Position numbers and translations under genes: made by a program. Shown here piece after piece: positions 5,396 through 41,492 of a DNA stretch of 64,000 bases. A model generated the notes under the pieces. The model had not been told where the DNA came from. It ran no database searches and saw only the letters and a program-made list of their open reading frames with translations. The DNA comes from Candidatus Eiseniibacteriota bacterium (GTDB lineage Bacteria; Eisenbacteria; RBG-16-71-46; JABDJR01), in NCBI GenBank assembly GCA_963783375.1, contig CAWANH010000028.1, positions 1,760,001 through 1,824,000 of the forward strand, in the 5' to 3' direction. How positions within the stretch are numbered: the first letter of the stretch is position 1; every line of letters begins with the position of its first letter.

Positions 5396-8300
5396 TCAGG
5401 CTTCAGGAAATTCGAGTGCGGCCGCCACCGCGTCTCCGGGGGGGAGCCGCCGCCCGGCCCGCCGGTTCGCCTCGACGGCTTTCGCCCCCAATCGCGAACG
5501 GACCGGAGCCAGGCGCCGCTCGAGCCGTGCCCGGTCCGCTTCAGGGGCGGGGAGCCGTTGTTCCTCGCGGAGCGCTCCGGCCGCCCCGGCCAGGCGGAGG
5601 GCCGCCTCGGGCCGGCGTTCGGCGAGGCCGGCCGCCGTCGCCTCCAGGGCCAGGGCCACGCCTCGCAGGTCCCGGAGCTCCCAGAGCACCTCGAGGCCCC
5701 GCCGGAGGTGGGGGAGCGCTTCACGGGGTTCCCCCGCGCTCAGCTCGGTCAGTCCTCGGTAGAGGGTCGACCACGCCTCCCCCTGGCGGGCTCCCAGCTT
5801 CCGGCTCGAGGCCACGCTTTCCTCCAGGAGAGACCGCGCCGCGTCGAGATCTCCCTGATAGAACGCGACCCGGCCGAGGCTTCCCACCGCCGCCGCCACC
5901 ACCTGCCGGTCGCCGAGCCGCCGGAACCGCTCCAGGCTCTCTTCCAGGAGCGCCCGCGCGCGGGGGTAGTCTCCTTCGTCCTTGGCCGTGTTCCCCAGGT
6001 GATAGAGGGAGGTGGCCGCGCCGCGTGCGTTCCCCAGCCGCTCGAATCCGGCCAGGCTCGCCTCCAGGCGGCTTCGCGCCGTGGCGTAGTCGCCGGTCTC
6101 GGAGGCCAGGAGCCCCAGCTCGCAGAGCGAGGCCGCCTCGCCCGGCTTCGTCCCCCAGTCGCCGCGAAAGGGTCAGGCTCTCCTCGTGGCAGGGCCCGGG
6201 CCGCCTCGAAATCGGAGCGGTCGTCGGCCAGGGCCCCCGCCCCCCGGAGGGCCCGGGCGCGCTCGGGCAGCTGGTCGTCGGAGGCGGGAAGGGCGAGAAG
6301 CCGGTCGAACCAGGCGCGGCCCTCGTCGGTACGCCCGCGCACCGACCACCAGCGCCAGAGCGCCGCCCCCATCCTGAGCCCCCGTCCCGCGTCCCCGGAC
6401 TCGGCGAACCGGGCCAGGGCCCGGCGCAGGTTGTCGCGGTCCCGCTCCAGCCGGTCCATGCGCTCGAGTTGGCCGGGGCCGGTGAGCTCGGGCGCCGTCT
6501 TCTCGGCCTCGGTCAGGAACCACGAGGCATGACGCTCGCCCATGGAGTCGGTCTCGCCCGACGCATCCAGCCGTTCGGCAGCGTACTCCCGGACCGTTTC
6601 CAGGAGGCGATGGCGGACGCGTCCCCCCGGCTCGGGAACCGGGAAGAGCATCGACTTGTCATGAAGGCGGACGAGGAGCAGGGGGACGTCCTCCGGATCG
6701 ACCCCGTTCCCCGCGCATACCGCCTCCGCCGCGTCCAGGTCCGCCCCCCCCGCGAACACGCTCAAACGAGCGAGAAGGATGCGCTCCTCGGGGGCGAGAT
6801 GCTCATAGCTCCAGTCCATGGCCGCCCGCAGGGTGCGATGGCGCTCGGGAGCGGTGCGGCTCCCCCCGGTGAGAAGGCGGAAACGGTGTTCGAGGCCCCG
6901 CCGGAGGCCCTCCGGTCCGAGGGCGGGAACCCGGGTGGCCGCCAGCTCCAGGGCCAGCGGGATCCCGTCCAGGAGCCGGCAGATCGCCGCCACCGCCGCC
7001 GCGTTGTCCGCGGTGACCCGGAACCCGGGTTGCGCCGCGCCGGCCCGCTCGGCGAAGAGACGCACCGCATCCGAGGCGGTCGTGGCCTCGAGGGTGAACT
7101 CCGGACTCCGGGGACCGGGAGGGAGATCGAGGGAGGGCACCGGGTAGACCCGCTCCCCCTCGACCCGCAGGCGCTCCCGGCTGGTGGCCAGGACCCGGAG
7201 GCCGGGGGCGGAGGAAAGGAGCCGGTGGACCAGCTTCGCGCATCCTTCCAGCAGATGCTCGCAGTTGTCGAGGACGAGGACGGCGCGCCGGGAGGCCAGG
7301 GCCGCGGCCAGGGCGTCCTCCACGGTTTCGCCCGGCCCCGGTCGGGCGTCCAGGACCGCGGCGGCGGTGGCCGCCACCAGGCCGTCCCCCCGGACCGGGG
7401 CCAGGTCCACCCAGATCGCGTCGGCTTCGAGATCCGGGGGCGGCCGCCGGACCGCCTCCACCGCCAGGCGGCTCTTTCCCGCGCCTCCCGGCCCCAGGAG
7501 GGTAACCATCCGGGACGCGGCGAGAAGGGCCCGGATCTCGCCGAGTTCGCGGGCCCGGCCCACGAAGGCGCTGGCGAGGGCCGGAAGATGGGACGGGGCG
7601 GCGGGCGCCGCGGCGAGGGAATCCGGGGCCTCGATGGAGCGTTGGAGATCGTCGCGAAGCTCGGCCGCGGAGGGGTAGCGATCGCCGGGGTCGCGGGCCA
7701 GTGCGCGGTCCACCACCCGGGCCAGGGCCGGAGGGATCCCCGGAGCCGCCTCGCCCACCGACGGCGGGGTTTCGGTGAGGATCGCCGCCATCACCGCATG
7801 GGAGCTTCCGCCGGTGAAGGGTCGTCGTCCGGCCAGCATCTCGTAGAGCATGACCCCGAGGGCGAAGACGTCGCTTCGAGGGTCCGCTTCGATCCCTTTC
7901 CAGATCTCCGGGGCCATGTAGGCGGGGGTGCCGAGCAGGGTGTGGGGTTCGGTGAGGAGCGCCTCGGTCGCGGCGTCGGGGGAGGCGGCGGCGCCCGCCG
8001 CGCGCTTGGCCAGGCCGAAGTCGAGCACCTTGATCCGCCCATCCGGGGTGAGCATGACGTTGGCCGGTTTCATGTCGCGGTGAACGAGGCCTCGTGCGTG
8101 GGCTTCGGCGAGGGCGTCGGCGACGGCGGCGCCCCAGGTCGACGCCTCGGTCACGCTCACCGGAGCCCGGCTCATCCGGGCGGCCAGGGTCTCGCCCCTG
8201 ACGCACTCCATCGCGATGAAGACCCGGCCGCCGGCTTCACCCGTTTCGTAGATCACGGCGATGTTCGGATGGGTGAGGGAGGCGGCGGCGCGGGCCTCGC

Positions 8301-8466
8301 GCAGAAAGCGGCCCCGGGCCTCGGGATCGGCGGCCAGGGCGGGGGAGAGGAACTTGAGGGCCACGGTGCGGCCGAGGACGGTGTCGTGGGCTTCCACGAC
8401 CTCGCCCATCCCTCCCGCGCCCAGGGAGCGGATCAAGCGATAGTGGGAGACGGTTTCCGGTTTCAT
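5396..8466 (-). CDS. Ser/Thr protein kinase fused to STAND-type ATPase and TPR repeats (~1020 aa after correcting two +1 indels near 6188 and 6142)
   Basis: Kinase motifs LGAGGMGEV, HRDMKPAN and DFG; Walker A GPGGAGKS; VLDNCEH; LDGIPLALELAA. Removing two bases joins ORF 5749..8466 to ORF 5396..5902 through continuous TPR-like helices (LHEESLTLSRRLGD...). Confidence 0.85.
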
Positions 8467-8527: not shown

Positions 8528-9985
8528 TCACCGCAGGACGACGAGTCGGACGGTGCTCCGCCGGGCCGATGTTACCGCAGTCGCGAAATAGATGCCCGAA
8601 CCGAGCACGCGCCCCGCGTCGTCCCGACCGTCCCAGGTGAAGACGCGAAGACCCGCCTCGACCGGGCCGTCGTGGAGGGTGCGGACGATGCGTCCCTGGA
8701 GATCGTAGATGCGGAGGCGGAGGGGCCCCGAGGCGCCGGCCTGAACCTGGAGGGTCCCGGGGCCTCTCATCGGGTTGGGGCTGGCGGAGAGAACGACGGC
8801 GGTGGGCCCGGGAGCGGGAAGGTCTCCGACTCCGGTCTGCTCCCCCACGCCGTAGGCGTAGTCCATGGACCCGTCGGTTTCGTTGTACACGCCCAGGTTG
8901 GGAAGCCCCTGGGGGTCGAAGGCGATGGAGCTGAAGCGTCCCACGTTTCCCGCGGTGAGCGGGGTGTTGTAGATCCAGGTGCCGTTGAAGCGCGCGGCAT
9001 AGCGCAGGTCGCCCTGGGCCCGGTCGTAGTAGAGGACGTGGGGCCACCCGCCCTGGCCGCAGGCGATGCTGCAGCCCTCACCGAGGTCCCCCGCGCCGTC
9101 CACCGTGAGCACGGTCCACGGACCGCCGGGGGTCTCCCGCGACGCCACCTTGAGATCGAGGTGGGTGACGTCCTGGTAGGCGATGTAGGTCGCCTCTTCG
9201 AAGGAGGCGATGGCGACGTTCCGCCCCACGTCCCCGATGCTGTCGATCCGCGCGGTGCGCCAGGTGCTCCCGTCCAGCCAGGCGTACTTCAGGTCCCGGC
9301 GGTCCAGGTCGTAGTAGGCCACCTCGACGCGCGGCTTCACGACCAGGGCGGTATAGAGCCCCACCGTCCCGTCCACGTCCGGATAGGTAAAGCTCCAGAT
9401 CCCTCCGGGGGGCTTGGTGGCCACCTTGAGCCCCGGCCGGGTGGCGTCGAAGTAGGAGATCAGGATCGTGCCTCCGCCGGTGACCCCGATCGAGGTGTAC
9501 TGCCCCACCGAGCCCGACTGGTCCACCACCTCCCGCCTCCACTGGCCGAAGGTGGAGTCGAACCATGCGTGTTTCAGGTTCCGGTTGTAGGAATCGTAGT
9601 AGGAGAAATGCGGGGTGCCGTCGAGGGCCAGGGCCATGGAAGCGTAGAAACCGGTGGACGGGCTTCCGTCCACGGTGACCGTCGACCAGGCACCCGCCCC
9701 CAGGGGAGACGGATTGGTGGCGTACTTCAGGTTCTGGTTCCCGTCGGAGATTCCGTCGTAGCGGAAGTACCCCAGGTGGAGGCGGCCGAACGGGTCGATG
9801 CGCAGGGTGCAGAACTGGCCCGGGCTGTTCCCGTTGGAGTCCACCGTCACCTCGTTCCAGTCCCAGGCGACGGCCGGAGCCGCGGTGACGAGGGACAGAA
9901 GGCAGACGACGGCAGCGCGTCGGAGGAGCGAGCGGGCCGGACTCCGGTGCGGACCCTTGGCCAGGCGCTTTCGAAGGAAGGTCAC
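8528..9985 (-). CDS. Secreted repeat (probable beta-propeller) protein with C-terminal FlgD-Ig/T9SS-like domain
   Basis: Signal peptide ending APAVA; about six repeats of VD..G.VG.Y.S.A....P...YYD.....LKYA; C-terminus SPNP...IYDLQGRIVRTL...WDGRDDAG..LGSGIYF. Start codon uncertain (GTG at 9985 chosen). Confidence 0.8.
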   Translation of the reverse strand: MTFLRKRLAKGPHRSPARSLLRRAAVVCLLSLVTAAPAVAWDWNEVTVDSNGNSPGQFCTLRIDPFGRLHLGYFRYDGISDGNQNLKYATNPSPLGAGAWSTVTVDGSPSTGFYASMALALDGTPHFSYYDSYNRNLKHAWFDSTFGQWRREVVDQSGSVGQYTSIGVTGGGTILISYFDATRPGLKVATKPPGGIWSFTYPDVDGTVGLYTALVVKPRVEVAYYDLDRRDLKYAWLDGSTWRTARIDSIGDVGRNVAIASFEEATYIAYQDVTHLDLKVASRETPGGPWTVLTVDGAGDLGEGCSIACGQGGWPHVLYYDRAQGDLRYAARFNGTWIYNTPLTAGNVGRFSSIAFDPQGLPNLGVYNETDGSMDYAYGVGEQTGVGDLPAPGPTAVVLSASPNPMRGPGTLQVQAGASGPLRLRIYDLQGRIVRTLHDGPVEAGLRVFTWDGRDDAGRVLGSGIYFATAVTSARRSTVRLVVLR

Positions 9986-10385
9986 GGCGGCTTCCCGATC
10001 GACGCCGGACGGAACCGTGGCCCCGAGCGTCGACCCGTTGGATGTTCGGGCTCCCATTCTGCCGGAGCCATAGACAGGTGGAATGCAATTCTACCATGGG
10101 GACGGAGCGCTTCGATGCGGCGGCTACGGGCCCGGAGGCTTCGGTTGACCCGGGGTCCGAACCTGTCACTTCGGCCCATTGGCGCTGGAGATTGGATGGT
10201 AGAAATGCCGACAGTTCTTTGAGAAATTTTGTAAAGCCAGCCAACTTAATCTTCGACTACCGGAATCGATCGATGATACTATCTGCCATGAGTCAAAACT
10301 GAGCGACAAGCCTGTTGTCATTTGCTGTAGATGAACTTAACCGACATGGAACCTGCTGTTTCCGGGCGGTGAATTGTAATTGAAC

Positions 10386-16600: not shown

Positions 16601-18464
16601 CGGGACGGATCCCGCCACGGTCACCCCGGATGCGCGAAACGGCGTGGCCCCCGGGGACACCGTGCACGTCATGGTGCACGGGGAGCTTCCGGGCAGCTGC
16701 AACGGACCCCTCCAGGCCCGCCTGGCGGTGACCGGCCAGATCGTCGGCGTGGACCTCTGCGCCGCCGAGGACATCGACTCCACCCAGGTCTCCTGCGCCG
16801 GCCCCTGCGTGACCGTCACCGGACCGCCGACCGATGAGGTCTGCCCGGGAAGCGACGTGTGGACCACCTTCGTGGTGGAGAACTGCGGCAACGAGACCTC
16901 GAACCTGAGCTTCACCTCTACGTTCAACGGCAGCCCGGCCGCGCCGGTTCCGGCCTCCCGGAACGACGTGGCCCCCGGGGACACCGTGCACGTGATGATT
17001 CACGGCACCATGCCCGCCGACTGCCAACCCATCCCGGAGCGCCGGGGGTGGTGAACGCGGCCGCGGGCGGCCCGGCGAATCCGCCCGCCGCGGGAGCGCA
17101 GGTCAAGCTGGTGGCCCTGGCCGAGATCGCGGGGACGACCGAGTGCGCGGCCTCGGACAGCGCGTAGCGCCTTCATCCCTGCAAGATCCCGAGCGTCTCC
17201 CTGGTGAAGGACACGTCGCCCGACACGACCGAGACCACTTCCAAGGTCACGATCGTGGTGGAGAACACGGGGAACTCGGTGCTCGACCCGGTCCTGGTGA
17301 GCGACCATCTGCCGTCGGCGCTGGGCTTCGACACGAACCAGATCATCGGCGGGACCTGCGGGGCCAGCCTGGATCACGTCCAGACCGTGGGTGACGTCTC
17401 CTGGGTGTTCTTCAGCGGGTTCTCCCTCGATCCGGGACAGTCCTGCACGATCATCTACGACGTCAATTGCCGGTCCACGACCGGGGAGGCCAGCATCGAC
17501 ACCGCCTACGTGGAGGCCTGGTGCGACGGCACCTTCGGCATCGTCGAGCCGGTGACCGACTCCGACACCGCCAGCGTGGTGTGCCGGACCCCCGGCGAGG
17601 CCTGTCCCCGCACGATCGGGTTCTGGCGTCAGCAGTGCGCGCAGAAGTTGAACGGATCCACCAAGATCTGCGAGGCCGGCATGGAGTCGCTGTGGGTGTG
17701 CGTGATCAATGCCACCGACGTCGTCCAGTGGAAGAAGAACGACGGCAGCTACGAGACGACGGCCAGCCTCCGGACCTTGGGAGGAGCGAACCCGACCGGG
17801 CTGTTCGACGCACTGTGCTCCCAGCTCCACGGTCCTCGTCCGATGACCATCCGCGACATGACCGAACTCCAGTACCTGGGACTCATGCTCAACGTGTGTT
17901 CCTCGGCCATCGCCCGGGGCATTCCGGTGAGCAACTCTTTCGTGGGCACGGTGGGTGAGGCGATCGACGGGATCGAGAACGCCCTCGAACACCGGACCAG
18001 AACCTCGGTTACTGGGAGGGCATCGCGGACCAGATCGACAACGGGATCGGCGTTCTCGCCGCGGAACTGCCCGGATCGAGAACGGGATCTTCAGCAATCT
18101 CCCGGGCTGCAGCGCTGCCACGGTCGGGCAGACCAGGGAGCTCGGGTTCCTGAGCGGGATGACCGAGATGCCCACGATCTTCAACTCGAGGCCGTACCCG
18201 AACCCGGTCTTCTCGGGCCAGACCATCATCCTGGTCGAAGTCCCCGAGGCGATGGGTGTGCGCGACGTGCGGGTCGAGGTCTACGATCTCAAGGGCGCCA
18301 AGGTCCGTCAGCTCTACAGCGCACCCATGAATCCCGGTCGCCACACCGTGAACTGGGACCTCCGCGACGACGGCGGTTCCGACGTGGCTTCGGGGATCTA
18401 CTTCTACCGGGTGGTGGCGGGGGACACCGCAATCACCCAGAAGATGCTGGTCATGCGCCGCTAG
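10699..18464 (+). CDS. Giant Cys-rich modular secreted/surface protein, paralogue 1 (~2580 aa reconstructed; several frameshifts, probably sequencing indels)
   Basis: RBS GAAGGAGG then ATG 10699; signal peptide; conserved N-domain; DUF11-like domain; ~16 modules with FVVTNTG/GDTVHV motifs; second DUF11-like domain; CPRTIGFW domain; YPNP...SGIYFYR CTD. Spans ORFs 10546.., 14096.., 14304.., 16859.., 17204.. and 17955..; junctions fixed by alignment to sister repeats and paralogue 3. Confidence 0.8.
12547..15775 (+). repeat. Intragenic tandem repeat, 963-bp unit (321 aa = three Ig-like modules), ~3.3 near-identical copies
   Basis: The anchor cagtgcgcggaggcg recurs at 12871, 13834, 14799 and 15762. 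Spacings are 963, 965 and 963; the 965 unit carries the two +1 insertions at ~14070 and ~14291. Confidence 0.92.
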
Positions 18465-18534
18465 GACGGCGCGATTGAGGGAGGGAACGGAGGGCCTGAG
18501 GGTCCCCCGTTCCCGGGCCCTTCGAACTCTCCGG

Positions 18535-18570
18535 ACGAGGCTCCGCCCCAGGGCGGGGCCTCGTTCTTTC
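18535..18570 (+). terminator. Rho-independent terminator after paralogue 1
   Basis: Inverted repeat acgaggctccgccc / gggcggggcctcgt followed by tctttc; a second hairpin lies at ~18483-18514. Confidence 0.7.
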
Positions 18571-18809
18571 AGGGACGCGGCGGAATCCGGTCCGGGAGTC
18601 GACCGCTCGAACCGGGGGACCCAAGAGCGAAGCCGACTCCGGTCCATCCCGGGTCCCGAGGCGATGAGGAGTGTGCCGGTATTGAAGGAACCTCGACGCT
18701 CAGGATGCGCGGGCGCCGGTCGCTCCAACACCTGCGGGCTTTCCGCCGCAGGAAAGCCGACGTGGACCCGGCAGTCCGGCCTCATTTGTCTGCGGATCGT
18801 TTCAGGATG

Positions 18810-18822
18810 TAATCATTTGATT
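18810..18822 (-). promoter_or_regulatory. IHF-consensus site upstream of paralogue 2 promoter
   Basis: Reverse complement AATCAAATGATTA fits WATCAANNNNTTR exactly. Confidence 0.5.
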
Positions 18823-18904
18823 ACTATCACGGCTAGAAAGGTCATAAGTGATTGGTTTTCGGACGTTAGGTCCCGAATTCTGCGAAATAAATTAGTCAAG
18901 AATA

Positions 18905-18934
18905 TTGACTTTGCCCACCCATTCTTGATATCAA
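18905..18934 (+). promoter_or_regulatory. Putative sigma70-type promoter for paralogue 2
   Basis: TTGACT-18 nt-TATCAA with TG extension, in AT-rich DNA. Confidence 0.5.
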
Positions 18935-19206
18935 TTCAATTCGTTGACAGATAAGCCGCACTTGCAGGGAGGTGCAAGGTCGGGGTTTCGTCGTTGGGCG
19001 ATGCGGATAGCCATGTTGGCGCTGCGATCCGGGAGCGCGGCGCCGAGGGGGGGATCCCCCAGCATCCATCCTGCAATCCCGCCCGTGTCTCTCTCCGGAA
19101 CCCCACTCACCGAGCCCTCCGATCGCGTCTTCCGCTCTTCCGACGCCACCTGCAGGTGTAAGTAGCGCTTCGCGGACCACAGACTTCGCGGATGGAGGAA
19201 ATCACA

Positions 19207-22200
19207 ATGTCGAGCAAACTCATGGGCCTCCGGAGAGCACCGCTCTTCGGCGTCGGCCTCATTCTGGCGGTGGCCATCGCGCTCCTCGGCGCGGGTCCCG
19301 TCTTCGCCAACAACGGGATCAATACCCCGCCGGTCGGCGGCGTCACCGCCGACATGGTTCGGGCGGCGGCCCAGAACATCGTGTTCGATACGGAGGGCGA
19401 CGTCTTCGGCGGCGGCGGCAGCTGTCCCAACCCGGTGAACTACGGCTTCGACTACGGCGACAGCGTCTACGTCTGGCTGTCTCCGGCGGGGGACCTTTAC
19501 TTCGCGGTCGAGATCCATGGAAACGTGGGGGACTCGGACCAGGACGGAGGCTATGACACCGAGGGATCGACCTGCGGTGGGCATCCGGATTGCGTGGCCG
19601 CGGAGGCCGACGCCTTCCACAACATCTTCGCCTCCGGGGTCGAGTCCATCACCTATTCGATCGACCGGGACTGCAACAACGTCTTCGACCTCCGGTTCAC
19701 CCTCACCGGGGCCGGGAACATGAAGGCGGACTCCGTTTCGGTGACCCTGGATTCGATGACCGGCACCTTCGGGGACATCCTGGGCGGACAGGGCACCGCA
19801 TGGGCCGGCGCGCCGCTGCAGGCCGGTCCCGACGGGGTCTGCGTCGTGGCGCGGAACAGCACGGTCGTGGTCAGGATCCCCGACTGGGGCCGCTATTTCG
19901 AGGATCCGGTCACCCACGATCCGATCCCCGGCATCGTGTCCAACATGTTCACCTGGAGGGTAAACTCCGGAAACAACTCGGACAGCTACACCGAGGACGA
20001 GGTTCTGGGGGTGTTCGACACCTCGAACCCCCAGATCGACCTGTCGAAAACCACGTCCAAGAACCAGCTCTGCGGGAACGGGGACACCGCCCGGTTCACC
20101 CTCACCGTGACCAACACCGGGAACACGCCTCTGACCGGCGTCACCCTGAGCGATCAGCTTCCGACCGGTCTGGGCTACAACGATTCCTACATCGACGATC
20201 CGACCAACGCGATCGGGAGCCCGAACGTGGTTTCGGACCTCCTGACCTGGACCCCCTTCGACCTGGAGGTCGGCGGGTCCCGGGTCGTCTCCTACCTGGT
20301 CGTGAGCAATGGGTGCCAGGGCCAGGTGTCGAACGCCGCCGTGGTCCAGGGGACGTTCGACGTGGACTGCCTGGACGTGCCGGTGAACGTGGGTGACCAG
20401 GACGCGGCCACCGTGACCTGCGTCGACCCCGGGGTGTCGGTGACCGCTCCGCAGGCTCAGAGCCTCTGCGCGGGGTCGCCGTGGACGGCTACCTTCGTGG
20501 TCACGAACACCGGCGACGCGACCGAGAACCTCTCCATCGCCTGTACGATCGGCGGCGCGCTCCAGACGCCGGTAGTCCGCAACGGAATCGCGGTGGGGGA
20601 CACGGTCCACGTGGACGTGGCCGGAACCCTGCCCGCGACCTGCGGCTCTCCGATCACCGTGAGCTGTGAGGCTACCGCAACCCTGCCCGGGGTGGATCCC
20701 CAGGCGTGTTCGGACGTCGACAGCGATCAGACCACGGTGAGCTGCACCGCGGCGTGCGTGACCGTGGCCGACGCCCCCAACGACACCGCCTGCGCGGGGA
20801 CGACCCTCTGGATCGAGTACGTGGTGACCAACTGCAACGGCCAGGGCGGCGACGAGAACATGACCTTCTCCGGCATGTTCAACGGATCCCCGACCACGGT
20901 GAGCCCGACCTCTGCCTCGAACGTGGCCGACGGGGACACCGTGCACGTGAAGCTGCTGGCGGTGCTGCCCGCGACGGACTGCAACCCGGCCGGACACCTC
21001 GGCACCCTGACCGCGAACGCGGCCCTGGCCAACGACGCCGGGTGCACGGACTCGGACAGCGGCGACGGACGGGCCTTCTGCGACGTCCCCGACGTGGACA
21101 TCGTGAAGACCACCAGCCCGACCACCACCGACTCCGGCTCCACGGTGACCATCACCGTCACCAACCCGGGCGGCGCGGCCCTCGACCCGGTCCTGGTCAG
21201 CGACCACCTGCCCGCCGGCCTGACCTTCGACGCGGGCCAGACCCTCGGTGGAACCTGCGGCGCGACGGTGGATCACGTGCAGACCGTAGGGGATCTGACC
21301 TGGGTCTTCTTCACCGGGTTCTCCCTGGACCCGGGCGCGAGCTGCACCATCTCCTATGAGGTGGGCTGCGGTCAGTTCGACAACGCGGCCCGCGTGGACA
21401 CCGCCTACGTGAGCGCCTGGTGCGCCGGAACCTCCCAGACCACCGATCCGGTGACCGCGTCGGACACCTCGGCCGTGGTCTGCGAGCGGGAGGAGATCTG
21501 CTGCTGGATGACCACCGGCGGATTCGAGAACGGCGGCTTCAGGTCCGGCAACAAGGACGACAACTTCGGCGGGAACGTGGGTCCGCCCCCCAGCGGGCAG
21601 TGGCAGCACGTCCAGCGGTCCGGGAAGAAGGTCGTCTTCAACTTCCACAGCCACGACGCCCGCGTACGCGCATGCGGGAACGACGGGACCGCCGGTCCCT
21701 GCGTGCCTCGCGGCCACTCCAACTGGATCGAGTTCGGCGGGCCCGGGGCCTACAACCTGGGGAACGGCCCCCGGAAGTACGCTGCGTACTTCACCGCCCG
21801 GGCCGAGGATCACGGGGAGCCGGGTCGTCGCGGGAACCAGAACGGCGGCTGCGGCACTCCGGACTACTACGAGATCACGGTCTGGGACGGCGCCACCAAC
21901 GAGGTCGTGTTCACCGCCTCCGGTCTCCTGGACGGCGGGAACATCCAGATCCGCGACTGCAAGGCCAAGAAGCAGGAGGACGAACCACCGCCGGTCACCG
22001 ACGGTTCCGCCCTGGACGGCTCCGGCAACCTGGGCAGCCTGGAGACCGGACAGGATCTGGGGCTCGCGACCCTGAGGCTTCGGGCCTATCCGAACCCGGT
22101 TTCCCAGGCTCCGACCCTGATCCAGTTCAACGTTCCGTCCCACTTGAGTGGGAGCCAGGTGGACATCTCGGTCTACGACATCACCGGCCGCAAGGTCCGG

Positions 22201-22353
22201 GCCCTGGTTTCCGAGACGATGAACGCCGGTCAGCGGACCGCGAGCTGGGACCTGCGTGACGAGTCAGGAAACGCGGTGGCGACCGGGATCTACTTCTATC
22301 GACTGCGGGTCGGGAGTGAGTCCCTGACCCAGCGGATCCTGGTCATGCGGTAA
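19207..22353 (+). CDS. Cys-rich modular secreted/surface protein, paralogue 2 (intact, 1048 aa)
   Basis: RBS GGAGGA; signal peptide; same N-domain; DUF11-like domain; 2 stalk modules; second DUF11-like domain; distinct C-domain (MTTGG..NFGGNV..DHGEPG..GGNIQI); YPNP...TGIYFYR CTD. Confidence 0.92.
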   Translation: MSSKLMGLRRAPLFGVGLILAVAIALLGAGPVFANNGINTPPVGGVTADMVRAAAQNIVFDTEGDVFGGGGSCPNPVNYGFDYGDSVYVWLSPAGDLYFAVEIHGNVGDSDQDGGYDTEGSTCGGHPDCVAAEADAFHNIFASGVESITYSIDRDCNNVFDLRFTLTGAGNMKADSVSVTLDSMTGTFGDILGGQGTAWAGAPLQAGPDGVCVVARNSTVVVRIPDWGRYFEDPVTHDPIPGIVSNMFTWRVNSGNNSDSYTEDEVLGVFDTSNPQIDLSKTTSKNQLCGNGDTARFTLTVTNTGNTPLTGVTLSDQLPTGLGYNDSYIDDPTNAIGSPNVVSDLLTWTPFDLEVGGSRVVSYLVVSNGCQGQVSNAAVVQGTFDVDCLDVPVNVGDQDAATVTCVDPGVSVTAPQAQSLCAGSPWTATFVVTNTGDATENLSIACTIGGALQTPVVRNGIAVGDTVHVDVAGTLPATCGSPITVSCEATATLPGVDPQACSDVDSDQTTVSCTAACVTVADAPNDTACAGTTLWIEYVVTNCNGQGGDENMTFSGMFNGSPTTVSPTSASNVADGDTVHVKLLAVLPATDCNPAGHLGTLTANAALANDAGCTDSDSGDGRAFCDVPDVDIVKTTSPTTTDSGSTVTITVTNPGGAALDPVLVSDHLPAGLTFDAGQTLGGTCGATVDHVQTVGDLTWVFFTGFSLDPGASCTISYEVGCGQFDNAARVDTAYVSAWCAGTSQTTDPVTASDTSAVVCEREEICCWMTTGGFENGGFRSGNKDDNFGGNVGPPPSGQWQHVQRSGKKVVFNFHSHDARVRACGNDGTAGPCVPRGHSNWIEFGGPGAYNLGNGPRKYAAYFTARAEDHGEPGRRGNQNGGCGTPDYYEITVWDGATNEVVFTASGLLDGGNIQIRDCKAKKQEDEPPPVTDGSALDGSGNLGSLETGQDLGLATLRLRAYPNPVSQAPTLIQFNVPSHLSGSQVDISVYDITGRKVRALVSETMNAGQRTASWDLRDESGNAVATGIYFYRLRVGSESLTQRILVMR

Positions 22354-22437
22354 GCGACGGGGCCCTTGGGCCCGTCGGCGATCGGCGGGCGATGCCGGCC
22401 CGGGTCCAGCGCCCGGACCGGCGCCGTCTCGACCGAA

Positions 22438-22473
22438 TCGGGGCGCTCCCTCACCGGGGGCGCCCCGAGTTTT
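22438..22473 (+). terminator. Rho-independent terminator after paralogue 2
   Basis: Stem tcggggcgctcc / gggggcgccccga followed by gtttt. Confidence 0.65.
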
Positions 22474-22676
22474 CCTTCCCCCATCGCAACGTCCCCGAAG
22501 TCGGTCCGTGCCCATTCGAACGCATGGGATCTGAAGGGGGCCGAATCGACGGTTCTCCGACGTCGCCGCGGTCTGACGCGCGGAGTTTCCGACGCTGGCT
22601 GGAGACAGTGGAAAATACTCTGACGTTCTGGAGAGTCTATGTCAACGAATGACTACATGTTCTGCGTGCAAGTCTG

Positions 22677-22689
22677 TAATAAGTTGATT
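22677..22689 (-). promoter_or_regulatory. IHF-consensus site upstream of paralogue 3 promoter
   Basis: Reverse complement AATCAACTTATTA fits WATCAANNNNTTR exactly. Confidence 0.5.
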
Positions 22690-22737
22690 TCAATGGCCGT
22701 TATAACGCCCAGTCTACAAAGTAAATCGTAAGAAAGA

Positions 22738-22766
22738 TTGACTTCGTGGATTTGATCTGATAATTT
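22738..22766 (+). promoter_or_regulatory. Putative sigma70-type promoter for paralogue 3
   Basis: TTGACT-17 nt-TAATTT with TG extension, in AT-rich DNA. Confidence 0.5.
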
Positions 22767-23033
22767 TTGTGGATCACATCGACTCATCTCACCTCGAGGG
22801 GGGGGTCACCTGAGTCCACGGACGGGGTCGCTTCATTCTCTGCAGTCGTGCGCGGACCGCGCTCATCACCGTTCTATGGGTTCTCCACGGATCCTCCCTC
22901 CCGGCTCGCCTCCGGCCCGCACGGCGGAAACGCCTTGGGTTCCGGAGGGTTGTTTTCAACAGGGCGAGCGGCGCTCATTCCGCCTCGGGAATCGCTTCAA
23001 AGTGGTTCGACCATGCGGATGGAGGAATTGAAC

Positions 23034-26000
23034 ATGTCAAGCAAACGAATCGGCGAGGGTAGGGCTTTCCCGCTCCTCGTCGGGCTCACTATTCTGGCTC
23101 TGGGCTGTCTGGCCACCGCCGGCATGGCCCTCGCCAACAACGGGGTGAATTCACCGGCCGTGGGCGGCGTTACCGCCGACATGGTCCGTGCCGCCGCCCA
23201 GCAGCAGGTCTACGACCCGCCGATGGACGTCTTCGGCAACGGTGGAAGCTGTCCGGACCCCGTGAACTACGGGTTCGACTACGGGGACAGCGTCTACGTC
23301 TGGTTGAGCCCGGGCGGGGACATGTACTTCGCGATCGAGACCCATGGCAACATCGGGGATTCCGATCAGGACGGCGGCTACGATACCGAGACCGCGACCT
23401 GCGGCGGCCACCCGACCTGCGTGAGCGCCGAGGCCGACGCCTTCAACAACGTCTTCGCCTCGGGGGTGGAGTCCGTCACCATCTCCGTCGATCGTGACTG
23501 CAGCGGGACCTCGGACCTGCGCTTCACCCTGACCGGCGCCGGCAACATGCGCGCGGACTCGGTCAGCGTGACCCTGGACGCCCTAACCGGGTTCTTCGGC
23601 TCCATCCTGGGCGGCCAGGGGACCGGCTGGGCGGGGGCGCCCCTTCAGGTCGGCCCCGACGCGGTCTGTGTGGTCCAGCGCGCGGGCGTGGTGGTGATCC
23701 GGCTCGCCAACTGGAATCAGTACTTCCAGGACAACACCCCGGCCCACAACTTCCTTCCCGGTATCTCCCCGACCACCTTCGACTGGATCGTGGACTCCGG
23801 AAACAACTCGGACTTCTACACCGAGGACCTCGTGACCGGCCGGTTCGACATCTCGAACCCGCAGGTCGACCTGGTGAAGTCGGTGTCCCGGTCCCAGATC
23901 TGCGCCTCGGGGGACACCACCCGGTTCACCCTCACCGTGACCAACATCGGGAATACGCCGCTCACCGACGTGATCCTGACCGACCAGCTCCCGGCCGGCT
24001 TGGTCTACGACGACTCCTACATCGACGACCCGTCGAACCCGATCGGCGCGCCGAACGTGGTTTCCAACAACCTGACCTGGACGGGCTTCACCTTCGCCCC
24101 CGGGGATTCCCGCACCGTCTCCTACCGCGCGGTGAGCGACGGGTGCCAGGGGCAGGTGGCGAACAACGCCGCGGTGCAGGCCCAGTTCGACATCGACTGT
24201 CTGGGCGGCCCGGTGGCGGTTGCGGACTTCGATTCGGCCGACGTGACCTGCGTGGAGCCGTGCGTGACGGTATCCGCGCCGGACGCCGCAGAGCCTCTGC
24301 GCCGGGTCCCCGTGGAGCGCGACCTTCGTGGTGACCAACTGCGGAACGGTGACCGAGAACCTCTCCATCGCCTGTACGATCGGCGGCGCGCTCAAGACGC
24401 TCCTGGTGGTCCGGAACGGCATCGCCGCGGGGGACACCGTCCACGTGGACGTCTCCGGGATCCTGCCCGGAACCTGCGGCCCGCCGATCGCGGTGAGCTG
24501 TGAGGCCACCGCGACCCTGCCCGGCGTGGCGCCGCAGGGCTGCTCGGACGTGGACAGCGACCAGGCCACGGTGAGCTGCACCGCGGCCTGCGTCACCGTG
24601 GCCGACGCGCCGGCCGACTCCTCCTGCCCGGGAACCGACCTCTGGCTGGAGTACGTGGTGACCAACTGCAACGGCCAGGGCGGCGCCGAGAACATGACCT
24701 TCACCGGCGTGTACAACGGCTCTCCGGCCACGGTGAGCCCCACCTCGGCCTCGAACGTGGCCGACGGGGATACCGTGCACGTGAAGCTCCTGGCGTCCCT
24801 GCCGGTGGACTGCAGTCCCAACGGCTACCTGGGAACCCTGACCGCAAACGCGGCCTTGGCCACCGACGCCGGGTGCACGGACACGGATTCCGGTGACGGC
24901 CGCGCGTTCTGTACGAATCCGAACGTGGACATCGTGAAGAGCACGAGCCCCACCACCACCAGTTCCGGGTCCACGGTCACGCTGGTGGTCACGAACCCGA
25001 GCGGTGTCACCCTCGATCCGGTCCAGGTCAGCGACCACCTGCCCCCGGGGATGCTGTTCGATGACACCCAGACCATCGGCGGCACCTGCCTCGCCTCGGT
25101 GGATCACGTGACGGACCTGGGCGGGATCGTGTGGGTCTACTTCACCGATTTCACCCTGGGCCCCGGCCAGAGCTGCACCATCACCTACGACGTGGACTGC
25201 GGTGAGTTCGACGGCCAGGCCAGGATCGACACCGCCTATGTCGACGCCTGGTGCGACGGCACCTTCGGAATCGCCAACCCGGTGTCCGATTCCGACACCG
25301 CGGTGGTGGTCTGCGAGGGTGGCCAGGCTTGCCCGCGGACCATCGGCTTCTGGCGCCAGCAGTGCGCCCAGAAGGGGAACGGCTCCACCAAGGTCTGCGA
25401 GGCCGGGATGGAGTCCCTGTGGGTGTGCGTGATCAACGCAACCGACGTGGTGCAGTGGAGGCTCAACGACGGCGGTTACGAGACCACCGCGTACCTCCGG
25501 ACCCTGAGCCCGTCGGATCTCTTCGCGCATCTCTGCAGCCAGCTCCAGGGACCGCGGCCCATGACGCTTCAGAACATGGCCGAGATCCAGTACCTGGGGC
25601 TCATGCTGAACTACTGCTCCGAGGCGGTCTCGGGCGGCATTCCGGTCCAGAACTCGTTCACCGGCACGGTGGGCGCGGCGATCGACTCGATCGAGGCCGC
25701 GATCAACAGCGGCGTGAACATCGGCTACTGGAAGACGGTCGCCGACGAGATCAACAACGGGATCGGCGTTCTCGCCCCTGCCTGCGACAACGAGAGCACC
25801 TTCTTCCGGAACCTGCCGGGCTGTGCGCTGGACGCTCCTGGGTCCGGACAGACCGACATCCTGAAGGAAGGGTTCGATCCGAATGCCCTGGTGGCGCGGT
25901 CCTATCCCAACCCGGTCCTGCCGGGGAGCGGAACCGTGATCTACTACCAGATCCCGCCGGACATGGGCCGGACGACGGTGGAACTCAGCCTCTACGACAT

Positions 26001-26175
26001 CGCCGGACGGCTGGTGAAGCGGCTGGTCTCCGAAGGCAGGGATCCCGGCTCCTACACGGTCAACTGGAACCTCACCGATCAGACGGGGAGCCAGGTGCCG
26101 TCGGGGGTGTATTTCTACCGCCTTCGGGCCGGGTCCGAGGTCTTCACCCAGAAGATGCTGGTGGTTCGCCACTAG
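23034..26175 (+). CDS. Cys-rich modular secreted/surface protein, paralogue 3 (~1046 aa; one +1 indel near 24287)
   Basis: RBS GGAGGA then ATG 23034. ORFs 22767..24503 and 24328..26175 join by removing one base (APDAQSLCAGSPW vs paralogue 2 APQAQSLCAGSPW). Carries the CPRTIGFW domain and a YPNP...SGVYFYR CTD. Confidence 0.88.
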
Positions 26176-29773: not shown

Positions 29774-29931
29774 GCCCGCCGGACCCCCGCCGCCGAATTC
29801 GCTTCAGCCCCCCGCACGGGCGCCGAGAACAGGATAGGGCCGCCGGCCGAGCCGGCGGCCTTTCCGGTTGACTGGCTGTGTAAGTGCAGTTATGTTCAGA
29901 CTTTACCGCTTACGTTCATCGAGGGCCCTGG

Positions 29932-31194
29932 ATGTTCTCCGGACGCCTCCGGGCCGGCTGGGCCGGTCTGGTCATCCTCGCCGTCCTTCTCCCCTTCCGG
30001 GGCGAGGCGAGCCCATCGTCCGCCGGGTCCGAGCCTCCCGCCGCCCGCGCCCTCGTCGCCCACGGGTTCGAGAACGTCGTGATGGATGCGACCCCCCAGG
30101 CGGTCACCGTCTGGTACGAGAACCGGATCTATCGCTACGAGATGGCCGGACTGGGTGAGGCGGCGGCCCTGGCCTCGGCGGATCTCGATTCGGAGCGCAC
30201 CCTGATCATGGTCCCCGAGAACCGGGGGGTACCCATGGTTGCGGTGGCGGCGGCCGCGGGGGACTGGCGGCGTTTCCTGGCCGGCGACGCCGACGCCTCG
30301 TGGTTTCGAGGCCGCATCGAAGTGCTCGCCGACGGAAGGGTTCCCCGCCCCCCCGCCGGAGCCGTCCGCTCCAACCCGCGTTGGTGGCGGACGGACCTGA
30401 GGCTCCGCCCGCTTCTTTCCTTCGAGCTGGGGATCGCGGACGACCCCTTTCAGTACTCGCTCTGGCTCGCTCCCGAGGCGGTCGTGAGCCCCGTCACCGG
30501 CGTGCTGGTCACCGGGCAGGCCCAGGTCCGGCTGCACGAGGACTTCGACGAGTTCGGCCGCGACGTGGTTCCCGGCCGGAACACGGTGAGCTGGGGAGGA
30601 CGGCTCCCGGCGGGATGGCTCGGCGCGGCCAGCGCCGGCCTCTTTCCATCCAACCGCTACGGCGTGGCCGCCCGGACGGGACGGCTCTTTCGCGGGGGGG
30701 CGCTCGAGATGCAGGTGGGGGGGGACCTCTCCGGGTTCCTGAAGTTCTCGCGGCACGTGGTTCTCTATTCCCGCCTCGAAACCTGGTCCGCGTTCGTGGC
30801 CGGAACCTACCGGACCCGCGGCATCGATCTGGAGACCACGGTGACCGGAGCGCGGTTCATGGAGAAACGGCTGGGAGGACGGCTCGACGTGGCCCGGCGG
30901 TTCGGGGAGACGCGGGTGGATTTCTTCGGCATCAAGACCCGGGACGATTCGGTGGTGGGGATGGAATTCGAGATCCCGCTCCCGGTCCGCCGGTGGTCCC
31001 GGCCCCGAACGGTGCGGCTCGCCACCGTGCCCGATTTCCCGCTCGTCTACCGGGAATCCGTGCAGGACGTCGGCCGCCAGGTCTCGATGTTCGACGACAT
31101 CGAGCGCCTGCGGATGGGGCTCTATCCCACCTTCATTCTCAACAACCTCGATGACCTGCGATCCGGACTTCCGCGGGGGGAGGGTGGGGAATGA
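29932..31194 (+). CDS. YjbH-like outer-membrane polysaccharide-associated protein
   Basis: Signal peptide; GFENV...YEN..YR motif; alternating beta-strand pattern; AGLF..NRYG; lies at the edge of the EPS locus. Confidence 0.65.
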   Translation: MFSGRLRAGWAGLVILAVLLPFRGEASPSSAGSEPPAARALVAHGFENVVMDATPQAVTVWYENRIYRYEMAGLGEAAALASADLDSERTLIMVPENRGVPMVAVAAAAGDWRRFLAGDADASWFRGRIEVLADGRVPRPPAGAVRSNPRWWRTDLRLRPLLSFELGIADDPFQYSLWLAPEAVVSPVTGVLVTGQAQVRLHEDFDEFGRDVVPGRNTVSWGGRLPAGWLGAASAGLFPSNRYGVAARTGRLFRGGALEMQVGGDLSGFLKFSRHVVLYSRLETWSAFVAGTYRTRGIDLETTVTGARFMEKRLGGRLDVARRFGETRVDFFGIKTRDDSVVGMEFEIPLPVRRWSRPRTVRLATVPDFPLVYRESVQDVGRQVSMFDDIERLRMGLYPTFILNNLDDLRSGLPRGEGGE

Positions 31195-31910
31195 AACGGT
31201 TTCAGAGCCTTCTCGCCCTCTTCCTGGTCCTGGCCGCCGCACCGGCCGCCCGGGGCGCCGAACCCCTCCCCGGCCACGCGTCCCTGGGAGGAACCACGGG
31301 CCTCATCAACACCCCCACCGCGGACGTCCTTCCCGACGCCACCTTCCGTTTCGGGTACTTCCGGATCGACAGAAAGTGGGCCTACCAACTCCGGGGGGTC
31401 TCCGACAACGACGTCTACTTCGTGAGCTTCGGGTTCCTGCCCCGGGTGGAACTCACGGTCCGGGCCACGGTGTTCAAGGACGTCACCCTTCTCCCGGACA
31501 CGGACTTTCCGCAGGTGGACCGGATGGGATCGGCGCGGATCCTCCTTCTACCCGAAGGGAGGGCGCCGGCGGTGGCGGTGGGTCTGGACGATCCGCGCGG
31601 CACCCGGCGATTTCACAGCCTCTATGTGGTTGGAACCAAGACATTTCCAATTCCGATGGGGCAAATCACCCTCCGGGCTTCGGGCGGATACGGGTTTTCC
31701 GCGCTTTCCGCGGCGCGGCGGGTCCTCGACGGAGGCTTCGGCGGGGTCGAGCTGGGAATCGCCGGCCGGGCGACGGGAATGCTTGAATACGACACCGAGA
31801 AATGGAATACTGGTGTAGGTCTGGTGTTCCTTGGACGCCTGAGCATCCACGCAGCCTTGCTTCATCTCGACACCCTGTCCGGGGGTGCGGCTTGGACCCA
31901 GTCGTTCTGA
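31191..31910 (+). CDS. YjbH-domain outer-membrane beta-barrel protein
   Basis: Signal peptide; GTTGLINTPTADVL is typical of the YjbH N-terminus; EYD motif; C-terminal Phe; 4-bp overlap with the upstream gene. Confidence 0.75.
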   Translation: MKRFQSLLALFLVLAAAPAARGAEPLPGHASLGGTTGLINTPTADVLPDATFRFGYFRIDRKWAYQLRGVSDNDVYFVSFGFLPRVELTVRATVFKDVTLLPDTDFPQVDRMGSARILLLPEGRAPAVAVGLDDPRGTRRFHSLYVVGTKTFPIPMGQITLRASGGYGFSALSAARRVLDGGFGGVELGIAGRATGMLEYDTEKWNTGVGLVFLGRLSIHAALLHLDTLSGGAAWTQSF

Positions 31911-35110: not shown

Positions 35111-36655
35111 ATGACCGCCTGGATCCGAGACCTCTCCGCGCGACAGGTCGCCAGCACGGATTCGATCAGCCCCTCTTCCTTCCCGACCCCCCCGGTGATG
35201 GAGCCCCTTCCCCGTACCCGGGTCATCGTGGCCTTGGCCCTGGTCGATTTCGTGGCCGTAGCCGCCGCGTTCTGGGGAGCGCACCTTCTGCGCGATTCCT
35301 CCCAGGCCCTGGGGCACGCCGCGCGCGTGGCCGTCGCCTCGCTGGCCCTGGCGACGCTGGGAGTGGGCGTGTTCGGGGTGAACGGCCTCTACGACCCGAG
35401 GGTCGTCGCCCGCGGTGGACGGCAAAGCGCGCCGCTCTTCGGATCCTGGATGATGCTGATGGGCCTGGCCATCCTCGGCATCTTCCTGGCCAAGGCCGAT
35501 TCCCCGCTCCGTTCGCGCCTGGCTCTCTTCCTCTTCTTCCTCTTGGGATCCGCCCTCACCTCGGCGGTCCGCGCGGGTGGATGGCGGCCCTGGCTCACCG
35601 CCCGCTATGGACGGCGGCTCCGGGGAGCCCGGGTGATCGTGGGCACCGGCAAGCTGGCGCGGCGAGCCGCCTCCCTCGCCGCCGAGCAGGGGGAGGCCGA
35701 ACCCTATCTCGTGGGATTCGTGGACGACCTGACCGATCCCGGAACCGGATTCCGCAATCCCGCGCCCCGGGGGCTCTCCGAACCCTTCCTGGGAGGCCTC
35801 AACGAGGTGCGTCATCTCGCCCGGGAGCATCGCATCACCCAGGTGATGGTGGCCCGGGAGGACCTCTCGAGGGGCCGGCTGGTGGAGCTGGCCCACGACT
35901 GGCTCGACGAGGGGCTTCGGGTGATCCTGGTCTCGAGCGCGTTCGAGGTCATGGTGGCGCGCGCCTCGGCGGGACTCCTGGGCGGCGTTCCCCTGGTGGA
36001 GCTCCGCCGATCGCCGCAACGGGGCTGGGGTCTCACCGCCAAGCGCGTCCTCGACGTTACCTCGGTGACCGCCGGGGGGATCGTGCTCCTTCCCCTTCTG
36101 GCTCTCATCGCCGCGGCCATCAAGCTTACCTCGCCCGGCCCGGTACTCTACAAGCAGGAGCGGGTGGGGCGACAGGGCAGGCGCTTCGTCCTGTACAAGT
36201 TCCGGAGCATGGTGGTGAACAACGATGACGAGGCCCACCGGAACTACGTGAAGTCGCTCATGCGGGGGAATGCGGCGGGGGTCGATGAGCGCGGGCGCAA
36301 GGTCTACAAGATGATGGACGATCCCCGGGTGACCCCGATCGGACGCTTCCTCAGGCGGGCCAGCCTGGACGAGCTGCCGCAGCTCTGGAACGTCTTCCGG
36401 GGGGACATGAGCCTGGTGGGGCCCCGGCCCTGCCTTCCCTACGAGTGGGACCTGTACGAGGAATGGCAGCGTCATCGCCTCGACGTGGTTCCCGGCATCA
36501 CCGGCCTGTGGCAGGTCACCGGCCGGAGCCAGGTCTCCTTCGAGGAGATGGTCCTTCTCGACCTGCACTACATCACGAATTGGTCCCTGGGCCTGGATCT
36601 GGCCCTGTTGACCCGCACCATACCCGTCGTGATCCACGGAAGCGGGGGGCATTGA
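35111..36655 (+). CDS. Priming undecaprenyl-phosphate glycosylphosphotransferase (WcaJ/WbaP-like)
   Basis: Four N-terminal TMs; KRVLD; KFRSM; [34 protein letters not shown]; PGITGLWQV. Confidence 0.95.
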
Positions 36656-36693
36656 GAGATGGTGGGGGGGGCGCGGCAATCAGGAGTGTGCGC

Positions 36694-37737
36694 ATGGTGA
36701 AGGTCGGCGTGGTCGGATGCGGATATTGGGGCCCGAACCTGATCCGGAATCTGGTGGAGAACCGCCGGTGCGAGGGCGTGGTGGTCTGCGACCTGGAGCA
36801 ATCCCGGCTGGACTACGTCCGCCAGAGGTTCCCGGTGGCCGGCACCACCCTCGACATCCAGGAGATCCTGGACGATCCCGCGATCCCGGCGGTGGTGATC
36901 GCCACCCCGCTCTCCACCCACTTCGACCTGGCCCGCCGCGCCCTCGGCGCGGGGAAACACGTCTTCGTGGAGAAGCCCTTCGCCCACACCTCGGTCCAGG
37001 CCCAGGCGCTGATCGACCTGGCCAAGGCCTCGGGGAAGGTGATCATGGTCGGTCACACCTTCGAGTACTCGCCCGCGGTTCGGAAGATCGGCGAGGTGAT
37101 CCGTTCCGGTGAACTCGGCGACGTGTATTACATCTCGTCCACACGGGTGAATCTCGGACTGCACCAGAAGGACGTCTCGGTGGTCTGGGATCTTGCCCCC
37201 CACGATCTTTCCATGATCTTTGCCTGGCTGGGGGAGCACCCGGTCCAGGTGGTGGCGGTGGGACGGGACTACGTCCAGCCCGGGCTTCCCGACGTGGCTT
37301 TCATCGACCTCATCTTCGGTTCCGGCGTCCTGGCCCACGTCCAGGTGTCGTGGCTCTCTCCCTCCAAGCTCCGGAACACCACCATCGTGGGATCCCGGAA
37401 GATGCTGGTCTACGACGACACCGAACACCTGGAAAAGGTGAAGATCTTCGACAAGGGAGTGAACTACCGCGATCCCGAGACGTTCGGCGAGTACCAGCTT
37501 TCCTACCGGGCCGGAGACATCGTCTCCCCCAAGCTCGACTCCTACGAACCGCTCCAGGCCGAAGTGGACGACTACCTCCGGGCCATCCAGGAGAAGGGGA
37601 CCCCGGGGGTGGACGGATATTCGGGGCTCCGGGTGGTGCGGGTGCTGGAAGCGGCGGAGCGCTCGCTCCTGAACGGCGGTCGCCCCGAGACCCTGTCCTG
37701 GGAGGCGCCGCCTTCTCCCTCCCGCATCAAGGTCTGA
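36694..37737 (+). CDS. Gfo/Idh/MocA NAD-dependent oxidoreductase (WbpB/WlbA-like)
   Basis: GCGYWG Rossmann motif; HVFVEKP; DLAPHD. Confidence 0.9.
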   Translation: MVKVGVVGCGYWGPNLIRNLVENRRCEGVVVCDLEQSRLDYVRQRFPVAGTTLDIQEILDDPAIPAVVIATPLSTHFDLARRALGAGKHVFVEKPFAHTSVQAQALIDLAKASGKVIMVGHTFEYSPAVRKIGEVIRSGELGDVYYISSTRVNLGLHQKDVSVVWDLAPHDLSMIFAWLGEHPVQVVAVGRDYVQPGLPDVAFIDLIFGSGVLAHVQVSWLSPSKLRNTTIVGSRKMLVYDDTEHLEKVKIFDKGVNYRDPETFGEYQLSYRAGDIVSPKLDSYEPLQAEVDDYLRAIQEKGTPGVDGYSGLRVVRVLEAAERSLLNGGRPETLSWEAPPSPSRIKV

Positions 37738-37750
37738 GGGGAGCGCGCCG

Positions 37751-38407: not shown

Positions 38408-38504
38408 CGACCTGCTTCCCGTGGGCTGCTAAGATGGACTCCGGGTTCCGCGCCGGCGGCTCGGGACCGCGCCCCCGGCACCCGTAGGGAAAGGAGCCGC
38501 TTCC

Positions 38505-39698: not shown

Positions 39699-39743
39699 AC
39701 CGGAGTCCGGCGTGGTCCGGATCGGCCGGAGTCCGGAGGCCGG

Positions 39744-40496: not shown

Positions 40497-40584
40497 CGCT
40501 CCAGACGATACAGCGGACGGCCGCGCGGGCCAACTCCAAGACGGCCGGGACGCCGGCTCCGCTTTTTGGTAGACTCCTCCGGCC

Positions 40585-41490: not shown

Positions 41491-41492
41491 GC

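Follow-up and report, generated by a model that had tools for sequence, protein, structure and literature searches.

Probable replacement of a C-terminal domain in one of three tandem, putatively surface-exposed paralogues of a Candidatus Eiseniibacteriota bacterium

A 64,000-nucleotide stretch of the 4.7-Mb genome of a Candidatus Eiseniibacteriota bacterium (assembly GCA_963783375.1, contig CAWANH010000028.1, positions 1,760,001 to 1,824,000 of the forward strand; hereafter the window) carries three neighbouring paralogues on its plus strand, P1, P2 and P3. The three proteins share a plan that consists of a leader, an N-domain of ~237 amino acids (aa), a DUF11 domain, a stalk of ~107-aa units, a second DUF11-like domain, a C-domain of 155–175 aa and a tail of the FlgD-Ig/type IX secretion system (T9SS) type. 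The C-domain of P1 and P3 is termed domain A, that of P2 domain B, and the place they occupy, after the last Ig-like/DUF11 domain and ahead of the tail, the slot. An earlier note on this DNA had taken P3 for the mosaic gene, built from the stalk of P2 and the C-domain of P1, and had proposed that C-domains are exchanged by recombination at the second DUF11-like domain. We find that the mosaic gene is P2, which holds B in place of A, with B as the presumed newcomer. We consider it probable that P1–P3 are tandem, modular and likely T9SS-exported fibrillar surface proteins, among which P3 kept the ancestral layout, the stalk of P1 expanded, and P2 obtained B for A by homologous recombination.

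Results

P1 (10699..18464), P2 (19207..22353; intact, 1048 aa) and P3 (23034..26175) resemble one another unequally along their length. Amino acid identities, given in the order P1–P2, P2–P3 and P1–P3, were 65%, 73% and 71% in the N-domain; 48%, 66% and 54% in the first DUF11 domain; 45%, 84% and 44% in stalk unit 1; 47%, 83% and 42% in stalk unit 2; 61%, 64% and 60% in the second DUF11-like domain; and 50%, 47% and 49% in the tail. Triplet site patterns were strongly unlike among the segments (chi-square 97.7, 8 degrees of freedom). These values bear out the earlier observation that P3 is like P2 rather than P1 through the stalk (20425..21075 in P2, 24255..24906 in P3). Domain A of P3 (25318..25830) matches that of P1 (17588..18100, beginning CPRTIGFW) at 102 of 134 aa (76%), while domain B of P2 (21487..21960, CCWMTTGGF...GGNIQI) has no sequence alignable with it, and of the profiles of A and B neither detects the other (no match at E up to 10). 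This contrast, too, had been described correctly, and all of the motifs quoted at the time are present in the sequence.

The similarity switches at the end of the second DUF11-like domain, after VVCE/VVCR, at about 17587 in P1, 21486 in P2 and 25317 in P3, and the blastn alignment of P2 and P3 stops at 21486/25317. The second DUF11-like domain itself lies at 17177..17587 in P1 (Pfam DUF11 E 2e-4, below the cut-off), 21076..21486 in P2 and 24907..25317 in P3. The switch had previously been placed at DTAYV, ~30 residues too early. The WCDGTFGI match that had been read as a signature of P1 and P3 is undiagnostic: the sequence at this place is WCEGTYDF in P0094, a P3 orthologue, and the outgroup protein P0005 shares WCDGTFGI. 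Domains A and B both start with a motif resembling Cys-x-x-Thr-x-Gly-aromatic (CPRTIGFW, window 25330-25353; CWMTTGGF, 21499-21525), which might be a shared junction mark or a trace of very remote kinship.

Outgroup genes place domain A in the slot before P1–P3 diverged. Seven related loci were gathered with the C-domain of P3 (three Candidatus Eisenbacteria, four uncultured bacterium). The outgroups with A in the slot are both genes of locus L002, both of L007, and P0096, whose layout is the full layout of P3. P0005, of the L002 type, has an N-domain only ~40% identical, yet its A is 77% identical to that of P3 and 73% to that of P1. Domain A is best read as the old, well-conserved and ancestral domain of the P1–P3 clade, and P3 as the gene with the ancestral layout, namely N-domain, DUF11, stalk, DUF11, A and T9SS/FlgD tail. 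Because A is old and conserved in outgroups, its presence in both P1 and P3 is uninformative on exchange.

It could nevertheless be argued, as the earlier note had it, that P3 is a recombinant in which a P2-type front half was joined to the C-domain of P1 at the second DUF11-like domain. Nucleotide sites that P3 shares with P2 outnumber those it shares with P1 in the first DUF11 domain (92 vs 47), the stalk (186 vs 40) and the second DUF11-like domain (66 vs 45), and the A domains of P1 and P3 are weakly sister on the tree (70/64). In A, however, P1 and P3 carry the same base at 24 of 55 fourfold-degenerate sites, about the fraction of 0.42 expected by chance (35 of 68 in the P1–P3 pair of a relative); silent sites are thus saturated, and P3 took no A from P1 recently. 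Moreover, the outgroup A is as close to that of P3 (77%) as is the A of P1 (76%), the tails of P3 and P1 are only 49% identical, the N-domain of P3 is as near to P1 as to P2 (94 vs 81 shared nucleotide sites), and P0096 already has the P3 layout. A recombinant origin of P3 is therefore very unlikely. The note had itself named a history that would speak against its view, in which P2 underwent one domain replacement, the P1 stalk expanded, and relatives showed no repeated exchange. The first part of that history, together with homogenisation of the P2 and P3 stalks, explains the window; the second part does not hold, as the content of the slot has likely been swapped more than once within the family.

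The history of domain B is consistent with P2 being the mosaic gene. B is single-copy in its own genome. On a tree of 35 B domains, that of P2 groups with those of P0087, P0092 and P0093 (support 93/92), whose N-domains are distant on the N-domain tree. P0097, by comparison, has an N-domain in the sister group of P1–P3 and a B distant from that of P2, and joining these two B domains was rejected (approximately unbiased (AU) test, p 1e-4). The tail of P2 (22078..22353), which forms the 3' flank of the slot as the second DUF11-like domain forms its 5' flank, is 47–55% identical to many A-type tails and 34–40% identical to the tails of P0087, P0092 and P0093. This suggests that only the middle of P2 may have been replaced, and the tail kept. 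A likeness of B to post-COAP-1 domains, suggested in the earlier note, is present as a weak match of NF041523 to B of P2 (E 0.0016), at 18.8 bits and so below the cut-off of 40; among 12 further B-bearing proteins, four have matches of 16.4–18.7 bits and none is listed for the other eight. A search of the whole genome with the NF041523 profile gave no match, and its controls likewise gave none.

To place the window in its family, A and B were followed across 206 genomes of the phylum. B has matches in 20 of them and A in 18, nine genomes having both, and the two domains start a median of ~275–283 aa from the C-terminus, directly ahead of the tail. An N-domain tree was built from 43 genes (21 with A and 22 with B); two duplicated rows were dropped from it, as were five truncated proteins that have an N-domain but lack a C-domain. 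The A/B label requires at least 10 changes on this tree. Monophyly of the B genes was rejected on the N-domain tree (AU p 1e-5 with 43 rows, p 3e-52 with 12 rows) and on the first-DUF11 tree (p 2e-4); on the tail tree the AU test of B genes gave no decision. A genes stand next to B genes in L004, L079, L082 and L088, besides the window and L001/L003, and the neighbours in L004 and L088 share both flanks around unrelated cores (52% upstream and 71% in the tail in L004; 75% and 68% in L088). It is likely, on these comparisons, that ordinary recombination has on several occasions replaced one module in the slot by the other, unrelated one. The proposal of C-domain exchange by recombination thus survives at the level of the family, with the junction moved to the C-terminal edge of the second DUF11-like domain.

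The same distribution could also arise if ancient A-type and B-type genes had persisted side by side while gene conversion overwrote their shared flanks, the core never being imported. A and B genes are adjacent in four families, and nine genomes stand in both the A and the B lists. Homogenisation of flanks also has parallels: the P2 and P3 stalks appear homogenised, and in L002 (6305-14315) two paralogues agree perfectly (100%) along 1665 bp of their 3' ends and at 97.9% along 1218 bp of their 5' ends. The L002 pair, which differs in stalk unit number, may represent either a very recent duplication or ongoing homogenisation. However, B of P2 is not sister to B of P0097, the nearest N-domain lineage, contrary to vertical descent of B. 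Among the three further genomes of the genus, two carry A genes alone at this locus and lack any B match, and the tails of P1, P2 and P3 are only 47–50% identical. We regard persistence with flank conversion as unlikely, and prefer import of B into P2.

The stalks appear to have changed on their own account. The stalk of P1 (11908..17176) consists of 16 GDTVH-containing units of ~107 aa arranged in a three-unit higher-order repeat, with 89.6% DNA identity over 3003 bp at three-unit offset, indels included. P0117, the P1 protein of a near-identical strain, has 13 units between flanks that are 99.6–100% identical, a comparison of two assemblies in which assembly error is possible. The P1 stalk is unlike those of P2 and P3 because it expanded. 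In the two-unit stalks of P2 and P3, identity between the paralogues (84%) exceeds that between P2 and its orthologue P0078 (76%), the reverse of the relation in the N-domain (73% vs 81%) and the second DUF11-like domain (64% vs 77%). Between P3 and its otherwise 99% identical allele P0004, 14 differences occur over ~1035 compared positions, and 8 of these fall within 12 residues (~24370-24405; p <5e-5). This patch overlaps a candidate conversion tract of 43 bp that is identical in P2 (20520..20562) and P3 (24351-24393). The P3 orthologues of the window and L001 are 95–97% identical in the N-domain, A and tail, and 83–88% from the stalk through the second DUF11-like domain (83% in the latter), silent sites included. 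Monophyly of the P3 orthologues was rejected on the stalk tree (AU p 0.012, the group having been named after the tree was seen) and not rejected on the DUF11 tree (p 0.33). AU tests gave no decision on P2+P3 in the N-domain and first DUF11 domain, on P1+P3 in the second DUF11-like domain and stalk, or on the P3 orthologues in the second DUF11-like domain. The P2 and P3 stalks were likely homogenised, presumably by gene conversion, although the evidence is weaker than for the slot.

A further gene in the relative L001 bears on how quickly the array might change. This fourth gene combines the 5' half of P3 with the 3' half of P2 and lies inside an exact 3838-bp tandem duplication (L001 1680-9378; 3861 bp identical). 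Its junction is in stalk unit 2, within ~60 bp that P2 and P3 have in common with one mismatch. Among the contigs listed from 5 of 18 read runs, none bridges the junction with both P3-specific and P2-specific bases, one 966-bp contig crosses the site as plain P2, and read depth was too noisy for a copy number of the duplication. The chimera may be a product of unequal crossover or a short-read assembly loop, and is unconfirmed; a crossover here, if real, would fall in the stalk, outside the second DUF11-like domain. Were it real, it would favour an actively shuffling array, where fronts and backs would be newly combined in living populations by unequal crossover within the shared stalk, and the patchy divergence of P3 alleles, with the stalk-tree result above, points the same way. 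Yet the ~60-bp overlap could by itself produce a false loop in a short-read assembly, and the listed contigs gave no diagnostic bridge across the junction. In addition, two long-contig assemblies of the window's species have the same P1, P2 and P3 proteins, and the A/B arrangement is identical in the window, L001/L003 and P0078/P0094. Active shuffling is extremely improbable on this evidence, and we retain an old replacement in P2 with slower exchange in the family.

Several results weigh against that interpretation. When labels were shuffled, the mean was 14.8 changes and 5 of 500 sets reached 10, so that the A/B state tracks the N-domain tree more than expected by chance. Most of the gene set came from searches that started from A and B, and the trees were computed under LG+G4, with no mixture model and with long branches included. 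The order of divergence of P1, P2 and P3 is undecided (AU p 0.41–0.43 on the N-domain, first-DUF11 and second-DUF11 trees), and monophyly of P1+P3 was not rejected on the stalk tree (AU p 0.11). Exact tracts common to P2 and P3 measure 43 and 37 bp, the longest being marginal (permutation p 0.04). Four-gene site patterns in the stalk, compared between the window and L001, were of the orthologue type at 44 sites, within-genome at 4 and other at 5; because they are mostly orthologue-type, conversion would be old or sparse. On the tail tree, travel of the P2 tail together with B was not rejected (AU p 0.50), and a double crossover is thus presumed rather than observed. Finally, B is single-copy and a donor for it was not detected in the same genome, so the replacement in P2 would be old and its mechanism conjectural.

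Predicted export was assessed from the tails, the leaders and the rest of the genome. The tails of P2 (37.6 bits) and P3 (25894..26175; 33.6 bits) score over the cut-off of 23 for TIGR04183, the T9SS type A sorting domain, and the tail of P1 (18189..18464), 49–50% identical to the other two, passes the cut-off of PF13860 (34.2 bits at G000:C28:1778216). Judged by eye, all three proteins have a signal peptide-like start with basic residues, a hydrophobic stretch and Ala-x-Ala. The genome encodes SprA over cut-off, six C25 matches over cut-off and 13 PorV-family matches (six over cut-off), and has 103 FlgD-Ig matches. The FlgD-Ig and PorV-family matches point to what would be a very large T9SS-type secretome outside Bacteroidota, and together with the SprA and C25 genes they argue for export of P1–P3 by a T9SS-type pathway.

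The remaining domains are less easily assigned. The first DUF11 domain of P2 (20017..20424) is recognized by PF01345 (E 1e-16 for the protein), while the N-domain (19306..20016 in P2) had no Pfam or NCBIfam match and neither A nor B matched a Pfam family at cut-off. Domain A of P3 was modelled as a mainly helical domain (predicted local distance difference test score, pLDDT, 90; predicted template modelling score, pTM, 0.87). It had no Foldseek match at E up to 0.001, and VIA over 48,161 chains gave a best Z of 4.6 (root-mean-square deviation 3.9, 82 aligned) and none of 5 or above, which is no proof of a new fold. A sequence search of the PDB with alignment A1 matched only the tail at E <0.001 (PorU, FlgD), and in the ESM Atlas A and B matched only unnamed clusters under 0.9. 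A model of domain B from its single sequence reached a pLDDT of 34.

Open reading frames (ORFs) starting at 17204 and 24328 are fragments of P1 and P3 that have been cut by single-base indels. P1 contains several of these, with domain A frameshifted near 17987-18076 and showing indels against the relative's copy, and P3 contains one near 24283; at those sites there are 1-bp gaps against the copies in L003 and L001. A near-identical strain encodes P1 as a single 2263-aa protein (P0117) and P3 as an intact 1045-aa protein (P0004). Since close relatives are without the indels, these are most likely sequencing errors. Promoter and terminator scans gave signal at chance level only.

A subtilase (S8) gene lies directly 3' of P3 (26589-28796, +) and encodes the same FlgD-type tail; an S8 gene also adjoins the paralogue array in L001, L002, L006 and L007. 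The protease may process or accompany the P1–P3 proteins. Upstream of P1, a divergent gene (8528-10057, -) encodes a protein with a repeat-rich N-terminal part and an FlgD tail, and similar proteins are encoded beside family genes in L004 (5341-6915) and L006 (11043-12608). Further downstream (29884-31910 and 35111-52603, +) are two YjbH-like genes and, after them, a polysaccharide locus (sugar transferase, glycosyltransferase, Wzz, flippase-like and Wzi), which could possibly be linked to surface attachment of the cargo. The window also contains a radical SAM/SPASM gene at 32690, a Ser/Thr kinase fused to a STAND-like ATPase (5749-8466, -), whose frame appears to shift near its end, and a tricorn-type S41 protease (1989-5270, -).

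Discussion

A slot whose flanks are homologous on both sides throughout the family could be refilled by a double crossover, or a conversion tract, with another member carrying the other module. Such swaps would have occurred several times in Eisenbacteria over long times. On a shorter time scale the stalks of P2 and P3 would trade short tracts by gene conversion, and the P1 stalk would gain or lose repeat blocks by intragenic recombination. By analogy with known surface proteins, the product may be a rod with the N-domain at its tip, the stalk as a spacer of variable length, and A or B beside the anchoring point, where they could serve as alternative interaction or assembly modules. A bolder extension is that the slot by the T9SS tail is a dedicated two-state site, where A and B would substitute for or complement one another in anchoring or assembly, with adjacent A+B pairs kept by selection in at least four families and the modules joined to new heads and stalks by stalk crossover even in living populations; we hold this to be doubtful.

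Recombination among modular surface-protein paralogues is already known; what is new is the family, with its three undescribed domains, a T9SS-type cargo that looks abundant in an uncultured phylum not belonging to Bacteroidota. Our literature search, which covered few subscription journals, found no paper on this Eisenbacteria family, so that a prior description is possible. Domain A, with a confident model and no clear match to a solved structure, is a reasonable structural target. The case also illustrates that, in the absence of outgroups, pairwise similarity among three paralogues can mislead as to which of them is the mosaic.

Shufflons and diversity-generating retroelements also vary the C-terminal part of surface proteins. 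Unlike shufflons, P1–P3 are whole genes on one strand, with no silent cassettes seen, and exchange apparently proceeds on evolutionary time scales. A search for reverse transcriptase (PF00078) gave 0 matches in the 97% complete genome (the control matched in 3 of 14), and no recombinase family was found among the 34 window ORFs scanned, a part of all those in the window; ordinary homologous recombination is therefore the likely engine. The likeness to post-COAP-1 (NF041523) is confined to a weak match over the C-terminal third of B, in P2 and the same four of 12 further proteins, at 16–19 bits against a cut-off of 40, and B (~155 aa) is longer than the 115-position model. With T9SS type A cargo (TIGR04183/PF18962; PF13860) the family shares a tail over cut-off in P2 and P3, a leader that looks hydrophobic by eye and a genome with SprA, PorV and C25 genes; it differs in lying outside Bacteroidota, in a tail that also scores as FlgD-Ig, and in export, tail cleavage and anchoring that are predicted.

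For periscope proteins, intragenic recombination has been proposed as the cause of changes in stalk repeat number (PMC8201768). The P1 stalk is similar in the high DNA identity of its repeats, and would be so in its repeat number too if the 16 and 13 units in two assemblies of near-identical strains reflect a real difference. Unlike that model, the stalks of P2 and P3 consist of just two units each, which are dissimilar, the rod shape of P1 is only predicted, and replacement of a C-proximal domain falls outside the periscope idea.

The closest parallel is with fibrillar adhesins, in which a head at the N-terminus is followed by tandem stalk domains and by an anchor at the C-terminus, with Por_Secre_tail among the listed anchors (10.1101/2020.12.07.414375), and whose diversity is traced to paralogues and domain shuffling (PMC10952558; 10.1101/2020.12.07.414375). 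P1–P3 are likewise long multidomain proteins with a tandem stalk (DUF11 over cut-off and repeated Ig-like units) and a Por_Secre_tail anchor. They differ from the adhesins in that no known adhesive domain was detected (N, A and B are without a Pfam match at cut-off, and an adhesive role is presumptive), in that the head is common to the paralogues of one genome, and in that the exchanged module sits beside the anchor rather than at the tip. We conclude that the family is an undescribed, fibrillar-adhesin-like T9SS cargo of Eisenbacteria, likely diversified by homologous recombination, and that it lends itself well to comparative study, since the part that is exchanged adjoins the anchor and exists in two unrelated forms.

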